From an uncultured Gemmatimonadales bacterium (lineage in GTDB: Bacteria; Gemmatimonadota; Gemmatimonadetes; Gemmatimonadales; GWC2-71-9): a stretch of 64,000 bases of DNA. The position numbers and the translations under genes are program-made. The notes beneath the pieces were generated by a model, which had not been told where the DNA came from, did not search any database, and worked only from the letters and a program-made list of their open reading frames with translations. Position 1 is the stretch's first letter; each line of letters starts with the position of its first letter. Shown here in pieces: positions 47,444-51,267 of this stretch. The stretch is taken from assembly GCA_963842945.1 (NCBI GenBank), contig CAWJIM010000024.1, forward strand, positions 256,001-320,000. The letters run 5' to 3'.

Positions 47444-47944
47444 CTACTTCAGGCGTCGGTCATTCCTCGCCGGCGGCCACGCACCCAACAACCGGCGCAC
47501 CACTACCAGCTCACCAATATGGTAAGCGGCATGGTCGGCAGCCAGCAAAATCTCCCGAAGATACGTCTGGCCTTCGCCGTGGGGGATCCGGGCTTCGAGA
47601 GTGATCTTGGGATCTTTACTCAGGTCCTGCAATCCGGCCCGATCTCGAAGAAACTCCCGGACGCTCGTGTCCCAAGCAGTAGAGTCCGGCGGTGAGGCTG
47701 AGGATGGCCAGTAATCATCCGGCCACTTGAGCTCGCGGTACTTGGGATTGCGGCAGAAATCCAAGATGTCGGCCTGGGTAATCCGGAGGTGCTCGACCAG
47801 CTGCCACGGGGAGTAAGGCAGACTCGCCGGATTGGTTCCCTGCAAATGAACCGGCAAATCGGTCACGGCCGCCTCGAAGCTGATATGCGCGTCCTCCCAG
47901 CTCAACAGCTTCGTCAGGTGTTCTCGGATACTCGAATCGGCCAC
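47444..47944 (-). CDS. DinB family protein
   Basis: AH..F, YSPWQLVEHLRI.Q.DI, T.LRE.LL.ADH.AYH.G. Confidence 0.88.
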   Translation of the reverse strand: MADSSIREHLTKLLSWEDAHISFEAAVTDLPVHLQGTNPASLPYSPWQLVEHLRITQADILDFCRNPKYRELKWPDDYWPSSASPPDSTAWDTSVREFLRDRAGLQDLSKDPKITLEARIPHGEGQTYLREILLAADHAAYHIGELVVVRRLLGAWPPARNDRRLK

Positions 47945-47947
47945 GGC

Positions 47948-48536
47948 TCACTCCGGATTGGATTTCGGGCCGCTCTCCAACGCGCCGCGCAGCGCTCGGA
48001 ATGCACGCGCCAGATCGGGCAACTGGTGGTTCGCATTCAACCCGCTGGGGTTGGGCAGGACCCACAAGCGCGCTCTCGCCGATCACTTCCTGCTGGCGTC
48101 CCATAACGGCTTTGGGCCGGTCGAACGCTGTACGATAGGCGCCGATTCCAACTACCGCCACCCAACGCGGACAGTAGCGCACGACCTTTCGCTCGAGTCG
48201 CCTTCTGCCTGACCGCAACTCGTCGGGGGATAGCTCCGCTGCCGTCGCGGTGGCCCGCGCGACCAGATTGGTGATGCCCAGGCCTTCCTCCAGGAGCAGA
48301 TGCTCCTCCCAGGGACTTACCAGCCGGTGAGTAAATCCGGCGGCGTACAGTGCCGGCCAGAAGCGATTTCCCGGCCGAGCGAAGTGGTGGCGCGTGGCTC
48401 CGGAGTAGAGCCCGGGATTGATACCGCAGAACAACACCTCGAGATCCGGACGGATCAGGTCCGGAACCGTGCGGCCTACGGCAGCCGCGACCTCAGCCTT
48501 GGTAGGCCGGGGGAAGCTCGAGGGACCATTCACCAC
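47948..48536 (-). CDS. mug: G/U mismatch-specific DNA glycosylase (frameshift ~48065)
   Basis: VLFCGINPGLYS, HHFARPGNRFW, GITNLV.R.T; corrected tail WVLPNPSGLNA...NPE*. Confidence 0.92.
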
Positions 48537-48538
48537 GC

Positions 48539-48895
48539 TCAGAGGAGAGTCAGCAGGATCGTCAGAATGAAAGCCGAGATCCACGACTTGAGATAGACGC
48601 CGCGGGCCTGGCGTCTGACTGAGGAGAGCTCCAGAGGATCGCTGATGTGCTCGGGGCCCGTATCCATGTCACGCTGACCGCGTGCGGCGAGCTTCACTCA
48701 GGTGCGTTCCCGGGCCTGAAAGAACCCCAGTGCGGCGGCCCAAAGCGGAACGATGAGCAGCAGCCTCCATCCGCGCGCCGCATCAGTATGGATCAGCATC
48801 GCCGCGGCTACCAGGCTGGCGGTGAGGAGCACGACGCCGAAGGTGAGCCGCTTACGACGCTCATGGGGACCGATGTTGGCGGTGGCGGTGGTCAT
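48539..48895 (-). CDS. Small 3-TM membrane protein with in-frame TGA at codon 66 (candidate selenoprotein)
   Basis: ...GFFQARERT-TGA-VKLAARGQRDMDTGPEHISDPLELSSVRRQARGVYLKSWISAFILTILLTLL*; the read-through frame stays open and stops 2 nt before the mug GTG. Confidence 0.7.
48670..48684 (-). promoter_or_regulatory. Putative bacterial SECIS hairpin
   Basis: mRNA CACGC-GGUCA-GCGUG; the G-initiated apical loop begins 18 nt after the UGA. Confidence 0.55.
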
Positions 48896-48917
48896 CGAGA
48901 TCCGATCGCGGCCGGCA

Positions 48918-49472
48918 CTACCCTGCCGGCTCTGCCGGCCGACCCGGAGCGATCCTCTTCTCTGCCCGACCCTTCACGTAGGCATAGATCGCCTGAATTT
49001 GGTCAGGGCTCAGCGTCCCTTTGAATGCGGGCATTCCGCGATCGGGACGCCCCTGACTCACAACCTGGCCGAACTTCTCCGGCGTAGCGACCGGACCCCC
49101 GGGAGCCAGCGATACCAGCAGATTGGCCGCCACCGGATTGGGCAGCACATCCTGGCCGTGGCACCGGGCGCAGTTCACGCTGTACTGCCGCCACCCTTCG
49201 TACTCGGTCTGGCTCACCTTGGGGGCATTTGCCGGCTGATTCGCTTCCGCCTTCTGCGGCGCGGTCGGGGGAGTATCGACGGCGGATGACTGGGACGGCG
49301 TGATCGGAGGGGTGGCAACTCCGGTATCAGGAGTGATAGCGGTGTCGACCGGGACTTGTGGTGCACCGCTGTCGATCGGCGCCGGCCCGCTCTCCGAATC
49401 CGACGCCCGGGACCCGCAACCTGCCAGGAGGATCAGCCCCGACAGCAACGCCACGCCAATCGGCCGCCTCAT
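48918..49472 (-). CDS. Lipoprotein monoheme cytochrome c
   Basis: Lipobox LAGC, Pro/Ala/Thr linker, CARCH, distal GMPAF, IYAYVKGR. Confidence 0.92.
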   Translation of the reverse strand: MRRPIGVALLSGLILLAGCGSRASDSESGPAPIDSGAPQVPVDTAITPDTGVATPPITPSQSSAVDTPPTAPQKAEANQPANAPKVSQTEYEGWRQYSVNCARCHGQDVLPNPVAANLLVSLAPGGPVATPEKFGQVVSQGRPDRGMPAFKGTLSPDQIQAIYAYVKGRAEKRIAPGRPAEPAG

Positions 49473-50246
49473 CCGCCGGATCTCACGGCTGGACGCCCCG
49501 GATGAATCTTGGCATCACTCCGACCTTTCACATACGAGTAGATCGCCTCGATCGTGGGCATCTCCATACCCAGAGAACACCATGAGGGCATGCCCTTGGG
49601 CGGGCCGGCCGGCGCAGACCGTCTGGACGAACAGCTCCTTGGTGTTGATGGGGCCGTCCGGCTTGAGCGACACGATGAGGTGCGGCGCGATGGTCGTTCC
49701 CTGCGCGTCCTCGCCGTGGCAACGCGCGCAGTTCAGGTTGAATTGCTTCCAGCCGTCGTAAACCTGCTGGGGAACCGTATCGAGCGGCGCCGTGTGGTAA
49801 GGATCGCGCAGGGGCGCATCGGCCGCGGCTGTCTGCGAGGGCGCGGCTGCGCTCTCCGCCGGCTTGGGGGCGCTGTCGGGCCGTGGAGCGGCCGCCTCAA
49901 CAGTGGTATCAGGACGCTGAGCGCTGGCCTGCGCTGCAGGTTTGGGCTTGGCCGGCCGGGGGGCCGGCTTCGGCGCAGCCGGCTTGGTGGCGACTGCTTT
50001 GGCGGTATCGGCGCGAACACCGGTCGATTCCGGCCGGCTTACGCCGGAGGTGTCCCGCATCTGAGCGTTGGTGTCGCTCGATGTACTGACCGCAGCGTCG
50101 GCGCCTGAGGTCGGGGTCGTATCCCGCGACACCACACCGGAGCGCTGTTCGCCCCCGCAGCCCGCGAGGCCGGCCAGCACGAGCACGCCTGTCAGTGAGG
50201 CCTTCCATCCCCGCAAAGTCCAATGCTTCCGGCAAGCACCAATCAT
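49469..50246 (-). CDS. Lipoprotein monoheme cytochrome c, paralog (frameshift ~49598)
   Basis: GAGGAGG RBS; LAGC; long linker; CARCH; corrected tail GRPAKGMPSWCSLGMEMPTIEAIYSYVKGRSDAKIHPGRPAVRSGG*, overlapping the next ATG. Confidence 0.88.
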
Positions 50247-50380
50247 GTGAATGAACCCCTCCTCTAGTGTGGCCGTCCAGCGCGTCGAGTGAGCTAAAGA
50301 TTGTCTGCTCGCCCTGGTTGCTAGGTGACGCAGGTCACGAGAACGGTGCAGGAATTCAGACCCCAAATTATTATCCCGGC

Positions 50381-51267
50381 ATGACGCAGAATCCGAACTG
50401 CTGTGACGTTGGGACTGGTGCAGATGCGCTGCACACCCGAGCCCGTCCGGAACATGGCCGCCGCCGTTCAGGGGGTGCGGGACGCGGCGGCACGTGGAGC
50501 CCAGATCGTCTGCCTCCAGGAGCTGTTCCGCAGTCAGTACTTCTGCCAGACCGAAGACCACCGCTGCTTCGATTTGGCCGAGCCGGTGCCGGGACCCTCA
50601 ACCGAGGAGCTGGGCGCGCTGGCCGCGGAGCTCGGGGTGGTCATCGTGGCGTCACTGTTCGAGAAACGAGCCCAGGGCATCTACCACAATACCGCCGCCA
50701 TTCTCGATGCCGACGGACGGTACCTGGGGAAATACCGGAAGATGCACATACCGGATGACCCCCAGTACTACGAGAAGTTCTACTTCACGCCCGGCGACCT
50801 GGGCTTCCGCTCCTGGGACACCCGGTTCGGCCGCATCGGCGTACTGGTGTGCTGGGATCAGTGGTATCCCGAGGCGGCCCGGCTGACCGCGATGAGTGGC
50901 GCCCAGATTCTGTTCTATCCCACCGCCATCGGCTGGCTACCGGCCGAGAAGGAAGAGCACGGCGCACAGCAACAGGCCGCCTGGGAAACCATCCAGCGAA
51001 GCCACGCCATTGCCAATGGGGTCTACGTCTGCGCGGTGAATCGGGTGGGATTCGAGGGAGCGTCGGACGCGGGGAATCGAGTTCTGGGGCGGCAGCTTTG
51101 TCTCCGATCCGGGAGGCCGGGTGATCGCAAAGGGAGGCACCGGCGAAGAAGTCCTGATCGCGCGGTGTGACCTCTCCAAGGTGGACGCCAGTCGGACGCA
51201 CTGGCCGTTCCTGCGGGATCGCCGGATAGACGCCTACGCCGACCTCACCAAGCGCTATCTCGACTGA
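50381..51267 (+). CDS. aguB: N-carbamoylputrescine amidase (nitrilase family; frameshifts)
   Basis: QELF...YFCQ, YRKMHIPDDP.YYEKFYF.PGD, VCWDQWYPEAAR, tail WPFLRDRRIDAY; adjacent to agmatine deiminase. Confidence 0.88.

Follow-up and report, generated by a model that had tools for sequence, protein, structure and literature searches.

The locus and its in-frame UGA

Does the TGA that closes a 65-codon open reading frame in this uncultured Gemmatimonadales soil bacterium end a small membrane protein, or does it encode selenocysteine (Sec) within a longer one? The frame lies on the minus strand of the window, i.e. the whole stretch of 64,000 nucleotides that was analysed, where it starts with an ATG at 48895 and ends with ...FFQARERT directly ahead of a TGA at 48700-48698. 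As the first-pass annotation of the locus had claimed, ORF analysis finds the frame open for 52 further codons (VKLAARGQRDMDTG...SWISAFILTILLTLL) until it closes at a second TGA at 48541-48539, and the GTG in the frame of the following UDG/mug gene was indeed located at 48536, 2 nt past this terminal stop. The predicted coding sequence (48542..48895, minus strand) comprises 118 residues with Sec at residue 66, based on the ORFs, on translation of TGA as U and on full-length Cys homologs. Assignment of codon 66 (48698..48700) as the Sec-encoding UGA draws on the codons found at this column in 110 genes, on the Cys of the wider family and on contigs from public runs. The computational analysis establishes a recoding signature, a Sec machinery in the genome, conservation of the gene and a confident fold prediction. 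Judged from these, 48895..48542 very probably encodes one 118-residue protein rather than a 65-residue protein followed by a gap, and we consider it just as probable that the product is an inner-membrane selenoprotein with Sec at UGA 48700-48698.

The two neighbouring genes, both on the minus strand, serve as context only. Upstream lies a gene for a lipoprotein-like c-type cytochrome (48918..49472; Pfam Cytochrome_CBB3, 46 bits), and downstream that of a UDG/mug-type DNA glycosylase whose frame is broken in the assembly (47715..48536; Pfam UDG, 64 bits, profile positions 2-102 of 141). No conserved partner gene emerged from the neighbourhood of 46 loci with 90 flanking ORFs. A cytochrome c is encoded upstream in just 3 of the 46 loci and a UDG-superfamily neighbour is found in 2 of the 45 others (L093 and L115) besides the window's own mug, while further flanking ORFs matched the beta-lactamase fold (5), Phenol_MetA_deg (4), DUF6498 (3) and Ogt (2).

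Conservation of the UGA codon

In a set of 110 distinct homologs, taken from genomes and metagenomes, the column of codon 66 holds TGA in 104 cases, TGC in five and TGT in one, while TAA and TAG do not occur. The 104 TGA-form genes themselves terminate with TAG (52), TAA (29) or TGA (23), and this mixture indicates that these organisms otherwise use TGA as a normal stop. Within the wider family, which comprises 2,615 cluster representatives at E <= 0.001, the residue at this column was determined in 149 representatives and is Cys in 145 of them, the others carrying Gly (2), Asp (1) or Trp (1). Cys is the classical partner residue of Sec, and the suggestion that the UGA takes the place of a conserved Cys is borne out by these relatives as well as by the six TGC/TGT genes. 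In both sets of sequences, Cys or TGA at the column is accompanied by conservation on both flanks. Most homologs have 52-55 conserved codons downstream of the Sec column, with A70, R72, G73, R75, D78, G80, Q96 and A97 as conserved residues; the first six are retained by Cys forms of the wider family as well. These Cys forms are single polypeptides, and some of them are nested within Sec clades. Among 28 aligned database homologs, nine have Cys at the column, in three the frame is read through with W at this position, and 16 end exactly after T65.

The gene occurs in 30 of 401 genomes of the phylum, of which 26 contain exactly one in-frame TGA and four have Cys, and it was found in none of the 24 other genomes of the same genus. 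One metagenome scan returned 169 confirmed relatives, and the best 80 of these 169 are nearly all TGA forms.

One alternative would be a sequencing or assembly error for a true TGC, TGT or TGG, or a pseudogene. The caution that the assembly is error-prone was well founded, as selA, selB, fdhA, mug and a cytochrome c gene are all split between frames, and contamination amounts to 6%. The same TGA recurs, however, in about 75 metagenome contigs and in a further 25 genomes, all of which are at least 90% complete. In addition, contigs from a pair of public soil runs (both belonging to one study, possibly the assembly's own source) span the codon with no difference listed; one of these contigs differs at 4 other positions within its 302 nt and is hence derived from a variant. 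Contigs from RNA libraries span just 48783-49071 and end short of the UGA. Since conservation downstream of the codon and frozen wobble bases in the hairpin described below are likewise unexpected for a pseudogene, the probability of an error or a decayed gene is practically negligible.

A SECIS-type hairpin within the coding sequence

A SECIS-like hairpin, CACGC-GGUCA-GCGUG, had been claimed to follow the UGA after 18 nt. The hairpin is present on the minus strand at 48670..48684, with the 5' arm CACGC at 48684-48680, the loop GGUCA at 48679-48675 and the 3' arm GCGUG at 48674-48670, whereas the distance has to be restated: it is 13 nt from the UGA to the stem and 18 nt to the loop. The bSECIS criteria given in the legend to Fig. 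2 of PMC13188914 comprise a loop of 3-9 nt, a stem of 4-16 bp, G in the first two loop positions, a UGA-to-loop distance of 16-37 nt and an MFE <= -7.5 kcal/mol. Here, a 5-nt GGUCA loop starting with GG is found on a 5-bp stem at a spacing of 18 nt, and the 45-nt stretch folds with -14.1 kcal/mol (-8.0 kcal/mol for the 22-nt core), so that the element lies within every one of these limits. Its description as SECIS-like is thereby upheld, as it also is by the conservation of wobble positions. The MFE fold of the 45-nt stretch further contains an extended lower stem (48656..48692, minus strand), based on the window sequence only; as this stem is missing from the RNAalifold result on 26 homologs, it is regarded as a prediction only.

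In terms of stability, the hairpin does not differ significantly from shuffled sequences (z = +0.20 and -0.38) and is by itself no more than chance would provide in the window's 65% G+C DNA. The observation rises above chance because of conservation, namely of the TGA in 104 of 110 genes, of the downstream peptide, and of synonymous sites that are frozen only in the hairpin. The 22-nt core folds in all 104 Sec forms, with energies ranging from -6.2 to -14.3 kcal/mol, and in the homologous stem 94.6% of cells pair. A covariation check, which had been recommended together with the hairpin claim, gave a weak signal: among 26 Sec forms one compensatory pair was detected, the window's own A-U, with 31 of 500 shuffles reaching the same score. 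The stem is nearly invariant and made of a GC repeat, so that two registers are possible and a register shifted by 2 still leaves 76% of cells paired; RNAalifold on the 26 homologs favours a different register, which is broken by the window sequence. When 48400-49000 was scanned against Rfam, no SECIS family was found, all seven matches being far below gathering scores.

Owing to the near-invariance of the stem and its two registers, synonymous-site entropy was used in place of covariation, calculated for 52 representatives below 85% nucleotide identity. Four-fold degenerate third positions display 1.2-2.0 bits across the gene, compared with only 0.14-0.40 bits at codons +6, +7 and +9, which are nearly frozen as CGC (48/49), GGT (47/51) and CGC (49/52), respectively. 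The Gly codon in the loop is GGT in 99 of the 104 Sec forms, while of four other conserved Gly codons three have GGT in only 3 of about 50 sequences each and the fourth in 13 of 50. In the six Cys forms, codon +7 is GGC four times and GGT and GCC once each, and one Cys form (L048) retains GGT together with the hairpin. As the peptide A-R-G-x-R-D is kept in Cys forms too, part of the nucleotide conservation acts at the protein level, and only the wobble positions argue for a role of the RNA. The SECIS would appear to be built from wobble positions of an already conserved A-[AS]-R-G-x-R peptide.

Selenocysteine machinery and probable decoding of the UGA

Recoding by means of a UGA, a SECIS and SelB is a textbook mechanism, and a search of the genome for its components revealed all of them: tRNA-Sec with anticodon TCA (70 and 63 bits), selA (287 bits), selD with an in-frame TGA of its own (366 bits), and selB (235 bits plus further pieces), whose score just misses the cut-off as the gene is broken up across frames. 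All 26 TGA-form genomes contain selA, as compared to 321 of 401 in the phylum sample, and a Cys-form genome, G173, is without selA and selD.

The codon is rendered as W in three database records, and a hairpin could in principle slow termination, which would be in line with recoding that does not involve Sec, be it that the hairpin promotes near-cognate insertion of Trp, Cys or Arg or that UGA has been reassigned throughout the lineage. The three records, however, also carry W at the next TGA and overrun the other full-length forms, as would be expected from a gene caller that reads TGA as W. Moreover, UGA terminates the gene itself and 23 of the 104 homologs, relatives almost always have Cys at the aligned position (145/149), and the GGUCN loop with its stem recurs in the elements that follow the UGA of fdhA and selD, both here and in related genomes. 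With the complete Sec machinery at hand in the genome, insertion of any other amino acid is considered highly improbable.

Insertion of Sec would instead proceed by reading of UGA 48700-48698 by Sec-tRNA(Sec) delivered by SelB, which in turn would be recruited by a minimal SECIS within the coding sequence, consisting of a 5-bp G+C-rich stem and a GGUCN loop 18 nt after the UGA. If selenium is short, termination at the UGA would leave a 65-residue fragment with two helices.

Structure and possible function of the protein

AlphaFold2 predicts a single compact fold for the read-through protein with a pLDDT of 95.7 and a pTM of 0.86 (49 sequences; all features on the minus strand). Helix 1 (residues 10-36, 48788..48868) and helix 2 (residues 41-63, 48707..48775) are predicted to be transmembrane; a conserved N-I-G..E-R-R-K-R motif precedes the former, and the latter ends with G-F-F-Q-A-R just before Sec66. 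They are followed by a short helix (residues 67-71) and a beta-hairpin (residues 74-83) with the sequence V-K-L-A-A-R-G-Q-R-D-M-D-T-G (48647..48697 together), and by helix 3 (residues 87-117, 48545..48637), whose C-terminal half forms the third transmembrane segment, in agreement with the third hydrophobic helix that had been anticipated after the UGA. In homolog alignments, N7 and R16 are nearly invariant, and G57, Q60 and T65 are conserved. The charge distribution places residues 67-83 in the cytoplasm according to the positive-inside rule, and by the same rule Sec is probably located at the cytoplasmic end of helix 2. There, it would lie inside a conserved Arg-rich patch, Q-A-R-x-[KR]-T-U-V-[KR]-L-A-[AS]-R-G-x-R-D.

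That both halves are placed in one domain at such confidence also bears on whether the locus might hold two small genes, the first for a DUF2892-like protein of 65 residues with two helices, the second for a protein of 52 residues whose translation begins at the GTG by UGAGUG stop-start coupling. A GTG does follow the TGA directly in the window and in 72 of the 104 homologs, gene callers list halves of 65-77 residues as proteins in their own right, and the N-terminal half alone resembles a stand-alone DUF2892 domain. The remaining 32 of 104, however, continue with GTA, GTC, GTT, ATC, ATT, ATA or CTG, which are not usual starts, and the internal stop would be TGA in 104 of 104 genes even though TAG, TAA and TGA are all used as terminal stops. 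Given, in addition, the undivided Cys forms, some within Sec clades, and the occurrence of selA in every TGA-form genome, a pair of coupled genes is very unlikely, and one continuous selenoprotein is preferred.

Comparison with solved structures afforded no informative relative: the best match by sequence profile has an E of 6.5, Foldseek returned nothing at E <= 0.001, and VIA-align reached a best Z of 7.0 with generic helical bundles. This lack does not show the 118-residue fold to be new. Structural neighbours of a natural Cys homolog, which serve as leads only, include clusters without names, fungal RAX1_C/RGS and one YgaP cluster.

Regarding function, Sec very probably replaces the nearly invariant Cys of a large family of membrane proteins of about 120 residues. 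Tentatively, it may act as nucleophile of a membrane-anchored site for redox chemistry or sulfur/selenium transfer, although we hold this to be doubtful; a partner Cys near the N terminus is present in just 31 of 104 Sec forms and absent from the window protein. More speculative still, and rather improbable as a whole, is a combined reading in which the protein would be the Sec form of a large family. Its one nearly invariant Cys/Sec would form the active site of either a sulfur/selenium relay or a redox sensor, anchored in the membrane and positioned at its cytoplasmic side. Under this reading, the UGA of the Gemmatimonadota genes could additionally serve as a selenium-dependent switch between the 65-residue two-helix and the 118-residue three-helix product, with the SECIS having arisen by freezing the wobble bases of A-R-G-x-R.

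To our knowledge, integral-membrane selenoproteins are few, and in this family Sec marks the key residue of more than 2,600 clusters, thus offering a handle for experiments on function. Soil Gemmatimonadota commonly carry the TGA form, which is present in 26 of the 401 sampled genomes. Existing records annotate the gene as "hypothetical protein" or as a protein truncated at the UGA; as gene callers split or truncate it, genome annotations are wrong at this locus. The family further illustrates clearly how a SECIS can be accommodated in the wobble bases of a conserved peptide, and how Sec and Cys have been exchanged repeatedly, the U of the loop being lost in the process (GGT to GGC).

Comparison with known families and SECIS elements

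The 118-residue family appears to be uncatalogued, as judged against the 119 selenoprotein families of a 2026 review, from which it is absent, and the NCBIfam selenoprotein models; in NCBIfam release 20.0, the read-through protein matched no family at E <= 10. The view that this is not one of the classical selenoprotein families has therefore held. The literature searched contained no DUF2892 selenoprotein. Titles and abstract openings on YgaP and selenocysteine gave nothing related, and the listings on selenocysteine or selenoproteins in Gemmatimonadetes/-ota named nothing on the 118-residue family.

A parallel to YgaP/DUF2892 had been drawn in the first-pass annotation, and it holds in part. 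Both families have in common an N-[IV]-G..[DE]-R..R motif and two transmembrane helices with W-R between them, and they may share a conserved Cys just after helix 2: hhalign against the genome's own DUF2892 protein aligns the DUF2892 Cys to the Sec column, albeit with a 7-residue gap and a probability of 53% (E 1.3e-4). The YgaP cluster superimposes on the Cys homolog over 64 residues with a TM-score of 0.76 by cluster-row length and 0.47 by query length. On the other hand, the window protein misses the gathering threshold of Pfam PF11127 (25.3 bits) with 19.7 bits for the 65-residue part and 17 bits at full length, and it was not returned by a genome-wide PF11127 search at E <= 0.01. In the family, PF11127 is the most frequent Pfam match, found at E <= 0.01 in 1 of 49 and 10 of 150 members. 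The three true DUF2892 genes of the genome (38-62 bits) are distinct from the 118-residue gene. In contrast to DUF2892, the 118-residue family has a 7-residue insertion before the Cys/Sec and the motif T-[C/U]-V-x-L-A-A-R-G instead of G-x-C-P-x-Y. Its first two helices resemble the YgaP/DUF2892 transmembrane hairpin; the beta-hairpin, the third transmembrane helix and the short helix ahead of them are additions.

Membrane selenoproteins compiled in Table 1 of PMC13188914, in which the 118-residue family does not appear, comprise a putative mercuric transport protein (PF02411), YeeE/YedE (PF04143), the SaoP permease and a cation-transporting ATPase. With these, the family shares the location of Sec in an integral membrane protein, the existence of Cys homologs and a prediction from Cys/Sec exchange plus bSECIS, while there is no sequence relationship, the read-through protein matching none of them in NCBIfam release 20 or Pfam, and size, three-helix fold and T-U-V motif differ.

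Closer counterparts of the recoding element are encoded in the same genome. A genome-wide scan for TGA, 14-36 nt, a 5-bp stem and a GGTCN loop in an open frame resulted in 25 candidates, including fdhA (FDH alpha, 411 bits; spacing 18), selD (spacing 32) and the 118-residue gene. Of the Sec-type selD genes located, 14 of 15 have a GCGCA/UGCGC stem capped by GGUC, at a distance of 32 nt from the UGA to the GGUC. In the 118-residue family, RNAalifold on 26 homologs indicates neither a conserved lower stem nor a bulged base. The stems differ between the three genes, being CGCGC/GCGCG in the 118-residue family (CACGC/GCGUG in the window), UCCCC/GGGGA in fdhA and GCGCA/UGCGC in selD. Yet, a G+C-rich upper stem of 5-6 bp and a loop containing GGUC are common to the elements of all three, in this genome and in its relatives. 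The E. coli fdhF element likewise presents GGUC in its apical loop about 18 nt after the UGA, where the G and U are needed for SelB binding, and the loop of the 118-residue gene starts at 18 nt, as does that of fdhA, in contrast to 32 nt in selD.

The gene in the window

What the first-pass annotation had described as a candidate unannotated selenoprotein, i.e. an in-frame TGA, an open extension of 52 codons and a hairpin in a small membrane protein gene, is fully present on the minus strand. The frame begins with ATG at 48895 (MTTATANIGPHERRKRL) and encodes two hydrophobic stretches followed by GFFQARERT, directly after which the internal TGA is located (48700-48698). Past this codon, 52 further codons stay open in frame (VKLAARGQRDMDTGPEH...SWISAFILTILLTLL) up to the terminal TGA at 48541-48539, and 2 nt beyond, at 48536, lies a GTG in the UDG/mug frame. 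The hairpin CACGC-GGUCA-GCGUG occupies 48684-48670 of the same strand; the distance of 18 nt from the UGA originally assigned to it is right for the loop, while the stem itself already begins at 13 nt. Window DNA has a G+C content of about 65% with long open frames, and shuffling the hairpin region leaves its folding stability about the same (z = +0.20 over 60 nt and -0.38 over 45 nt). By themselves, the open frame and hairpin are no more than chance would yield, and the case is one of comparison with other sequences.

Two contigs from public sequencing runs (X1, 151 nt; X2, 302 nt) span 48698-48700 with no difference listed there; the X2 contig shows four differences outside the TGA and therefore derives from a variant. 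Both runs belong to one study, possibly the source of the assembly, and contig support for the TGA is weak and not independent. RNA-library contigs (two libraries, another study) match 48783-49071, covering the 5' end of the gene and the upstream cytochrome c, and end before the UGA; they are no proof of transcription.

Homologs and the codon at the Sec column

A protein-database search with the read-through protein gave 38 proteins at E <= 0.01 among 108 candidates, and 28 of the 38 were aligned. Nine of these, all full-length (116-130 aa), carry Cys at the UGA column within the motif R-[DE]-[KR]-T-C-V-K-L-A-A-R-G-Q-R-D-M-D, while 16 stop right after the Thr preceding it. The other three have Trp both there and at the next TGA and overrun other full-length ends, as a gene caller using a TGA=Trp code would produce. 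When 401 genomes of the phylum were searched in six frames, 30 had the gene, including the window's own; 26 matches are interrupted by a single in-frame stop, a TGA at the same column in every case, and the four without a stop have Cys there. Past the column, 52-55 conserved codons ending in a hydrophobic helix follow in most of the 30 loci. Species-representative genomes contributed 14 loci, 12 of them Gemmatimonadaceae, Gemmatimonadales or Gemmatimonadota by contig title, one Methylomirabilota and one Rokubacteria. Metagenome contigs yielded 169 confirmed relatives, the best 80 of which were retained. Of the 124 loci L023-L146, 119 gave a match to a motif pattern; in the other five (L040, L050, L114, L119, L141), the gene is truncated at a contig end or diverges too far.

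Across the 110 distinct nucleotide sequences of these loci, the column codon is TGA in 104, TGC in five and TGT in one, with no TAA or TAG. A substitution error creating the window TGA is excluded by the TGA in homologs. The 104 TGA forms terminate with TAG (52), TAA (29) or TGA (23). A separate second gene behind the TGA would call for a start codon, and GTG does follow directly in 72 of them; since the other 32 have GTA, GTC, GTT, ATC, ATT, ATA or CTG instead, no conserved start codon exists for such a gene. Within the window's genus, the gene was found in none of 24 other genomes, compared to 4/4 and 8/9 in two sister genera; its distribution may be patchy, or else the contig binning is worth a look.

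A profile of 49 members searched against 1.84 billion cluster representatives retrieved 2,615 proteins at E <= 0.001, 1,109 at <= 1e-10 and 36 at <= 1e-30. When the window protein was aligned with 149 of the 150 listed hits, Cys was found at the Sec column in 145 hits, Gly in two and Asp and Trp in one each. The UGA thus stands in for the key Cys in a large family of uncharacterised proteins. The earlier suggestion of a replaced Cys, with Cys or TGA at this column in homologs and conservation past the UGA, is borne out by these data. The Sec column, N7, R16, Q60, T65 and A70 are among the best conserved positions in the listed hits, ten of which, looked up by exact sequence, are named "hypothetical protein" or not at all. 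Some Cys forms of the family (P0129, P0160 and P0172) are extended N-terminally by about 70 residues, with two zinc-ribbon-like C-P-x-C-type pairs fused ahead of N-I-G, which may hint at a metal- or redox-linked role.

The hairpin as a probable SECIS element

According to the legend of Fig. 2 in PMC13188914, the bSECIS consensus comprises a loop of 3-9 nt with G in its first two positions, an upper stem of 4-16 bp, a UGA-to-loop distance of 16-37 nt and an MFE <= -7.5 kcal/mol. The window element, with its 5-nt loop GGUCA, 5-bp stem and 18-nt spacing, lies within the criteria of this legend; its 22-nt core alone has an MFE of -8.0 kcal/mol, and a 45-nt fold reaches -14.1. Homologs have CGCGC-GGUC[A/U/G]-GCGCG, 94.6% of stem cells are paired in 26 Sec forms, and the 22-nt core folds in all 104 distinct Sec forms (-6.2 to -14.3 kcal/mol). 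With a stem that is almost invariant, classical covariation is poor. The only double change is the window's own A-U for G-C at two wobble positions, and 31 of 500 shuffles attain the covariation score. Owing to the GC repeat that forms the stem, 76% of cells still pair in a register shifted by two, and RNAalifold prefers another register, which the window sequence breaks and which loci L029, L052 and L145 fit via changes on both sides.

More telling than covariation is the freedom of synonymous sites, assessed at conserved four-fold codons of 52 representative Sec forms sharing less than 85% nucleotide identity. Third-position entropy is 1.2-2.0 bits across the gene and low at three codons only, all inside the hairpin: +6 (CGC in 48/49, 0.14 bit), +7 (GGT in 47/51, 0.40 bit) and +9 (CGC in 49/52, 0.37 bit). 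Other conserved Gly codons are GGT in 3/50, 3/50, 3/51 and, at a fourth, 13/50. Among all distinct genes, 99 of 104 Sec forms use GGT at codon +7, while the six Cys forms have GGC (four), GGT (one) and GCC (one); hence, the U of the GGU loop is kept only where a UGA needs decoding.

The same element occurs in known selenoprotein genes. In selD of the window's genome, an in-frame TGA within G-A-G-U-A-C-K is followed 27 nt on by GCGCA-GGUCC-UGCGC. Scanning the whole genome for a TGA, 14-36 nt, a 5-bp stem and a GGTCN loop in an open frame yielded 25 candidates, most in frames of non-coding appearance; the three convincing genes are selD, the membrane-protein gene and C5:152690-154180. The latter reads ...NQARI-U-HSSSVPGLG and encodes the formate dehydrogenase alpha subunit (fdhA; 411 and 362 bits over the N-terminal 330 residues, after which the assembly frame breaks), its element UCCCC-GGUCU-GGGGA also placing the loop 18 nt past the UGA. 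Additionally, selD was detected in 25 of 26 other family-bearing genomes searched, 18 of these matches with one TGA. Among 15 Sec-type selD genes placed by pattern, including the window genome's own, 14 carry GGUC 32 nt past the UGA, capping a GCGCA/UGCGC stem, with GGUG in the remaining one. Stem plus GGUCN is therefore what follows the Sec-UGA in the known selenoprotein genes examined.

Sec machinery and assembly quality

The window's assembly (24 contigs, 86.9% complete, 6% contaminated) contains all parts of the Sec machinery that had been named as a check: tRNA-Sec on two contigs (70 and 63 bits; tRNA-SeC with anticodon TCA by ARAGORN), selA (287 bits, spread over three frames), selB (235 bits for its N-terminal part, with more fragments elsewhere on that contig) and selD (366 bits). 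Across the phylum, selA is present in 321 of 401 sampled genomes, in 26/26 with the TGA form and in 3/4 with the Cys form; the selA and selD tallies take in G157 and G057, flagged unpublished, and no claim hinges on either. Genome G173, with a Cys form, is the sole family-bearing genome without selA or selD, and the hairpin of its locus L046 is degraded (GGC, CUA, 3-bp stem).

The warning of an error-prone assembly proved justified: selA (C2:138515-139839), selB (C2:8832-10665) and fdhA are broken across frames or cut, and indel errors are therefore frequent. The tRNA-Sec genes (C15:14378-14471 and C1:150251-150344) lie at equal offset in their loci, and other searches, e.g. for selB-like matches, hit both contigs in parallel, which suggests duplicated or strain-variant contigs and fits the 6% contamination. 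Next to the selenoprotein gene, the UDG/mug ORF (47715-48584, minus) aligns with just positions 2-102 of the 141-position Pfam UDG profile and continues for about 130 residues in a frame overlapping the DinB-like gene (47444-47944, minus), probably owing to an indel error mid-mug. A second cytochrome-c-like ORF (49469-50561, minus) contains N-C-A-R-C-H-G and gave no match in a Pfam search; the C-terminal end it should have, ..IEAIYSYVKGR.., is found in a different frame (ORF 49469-49591), which suggests a further frameshift, here in a tandem paralog of cytochrome c 48918-49472.

Evolution of Sec and Cys forms

In a FastTree tree (149 rows, 112 columns), deep forks lack resolution, and at least four Sec/Cys changes fall on well-supported branches. 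Gemmatimonadaceae Cys forms (P0004; L053, L086, L133, P0005-P0008) are nested in well-supported Sec clades and retain the A-A-R-G-Q-R-D peptide, but with GGC, consistent with recent Sec-to-Cys reversion and loop relaxation. As A-x-R-G-x-R is conserved in listed Cys forms of the wider family too, the SECIS seems to have been inscribed in the wobble positions of an older conserved peptide, whose codons GCN CGN GGN NNN CGN would suit a GC hairpin.

Structure, neighbours and possible function

AlphaFold2 with a 49-row alignment predicts a confident single domain (mean pLDDT 95.7, pTM 0.86) with helices 10-36 and 41-63, Sec66, a short helix 67-71, a beta-hairpin 74-76/81-83 and a long helix 87-117, the latter matching the third hydrophobic helix anticipated past the UGA. 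Positive charges ahead of helix 1 (R13, R14, K15, R16) and a net positive segment past helix 2 suggest, by the positive-inside rule, a cytoplasmic N terminus and Sec segment and an outward C terminus. No informative relative was found among solved structures.

Across 46 loci with 90 flanking ORFs, no neighbour recurs in more than five, and the upstream cytochrome c and downstream mug were rejected as conserved partners. DNA-repair neighbours, i.e. UDG upstream (L093, L115), Ogt downstream (L032, L035), a Holliday-junction-resolvase-like endonuclease (L027) and mug in the window, are too few for an association. Of 149 listed wider-family members, 86 have a second Cys up to 5 residues before the N-I-G Asn; among Sec forms this falls to 31 of 104, and the window protein lacks it. 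A fixed Cys-Sec redox pair is therefore rejected as a general feature. Sec as a rule takes the place of a catalytic redox Cys, and in E. coli the YgaP domain is associated with a rhodanese. On this basis the best guess, at well below even odds, would be a membrane-anchored nucleophile at the cytoplasmic face within a conserved Arg-rich patch, serving thiol/selenol redox chemistry or sulfur/selenium transfer.

Comparison with known systems

The Cys/TGA column, the frozen wobble positions, the machinery and the fdhA and selD elements together support the selenoprotein interpretation as a whole, and the gene very probably decodes Sec. As had been suspected, it falls outside the classical selenoprotein families, being absent from the 119 prokaryotic families and subfamilies in Table 1 of PMC13188914 and having no model in NCBIfam release 20. 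In PMC13188914 and the deep-Sep and BSepDB papers, DUF2892, YgaP, Gemmatimon*, "membrane protein" and "transmembrane" do not appear, and a full-text literature search gave nothing on this selenoprotein family. Hence, the family seems new relative to the literature, although supplementary tables or BSepDB itself could list it.

The proposed parallel to YgaP/DUF2892-like domains is supported only in part. N-I-G..E-R..R and W-R align, and the DUF2892 Cys meets the Sec column across a 7-residue gap; Pfam YgaP-like_TM/DUF2892, however, scores 19.7 and 17 bits against a threshold of 25.3 and is matched, below threshold, by 1/49 and 10/150 (listed) family members. Compared with the best of the three genuine DUF2892 proteins of the same genome (62, 39 and 38 bits), the family profile reached only 53% probability (E 1.3e-4). 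In contrast to DUF2892, the selenoprotein family has an added C-terminal module and is probably a distant relative rather than a member. Decoding would follow the standard bacterial mechanism. In E. coli, fdhF likewise carries a GGUC loop about as far from its UGA.
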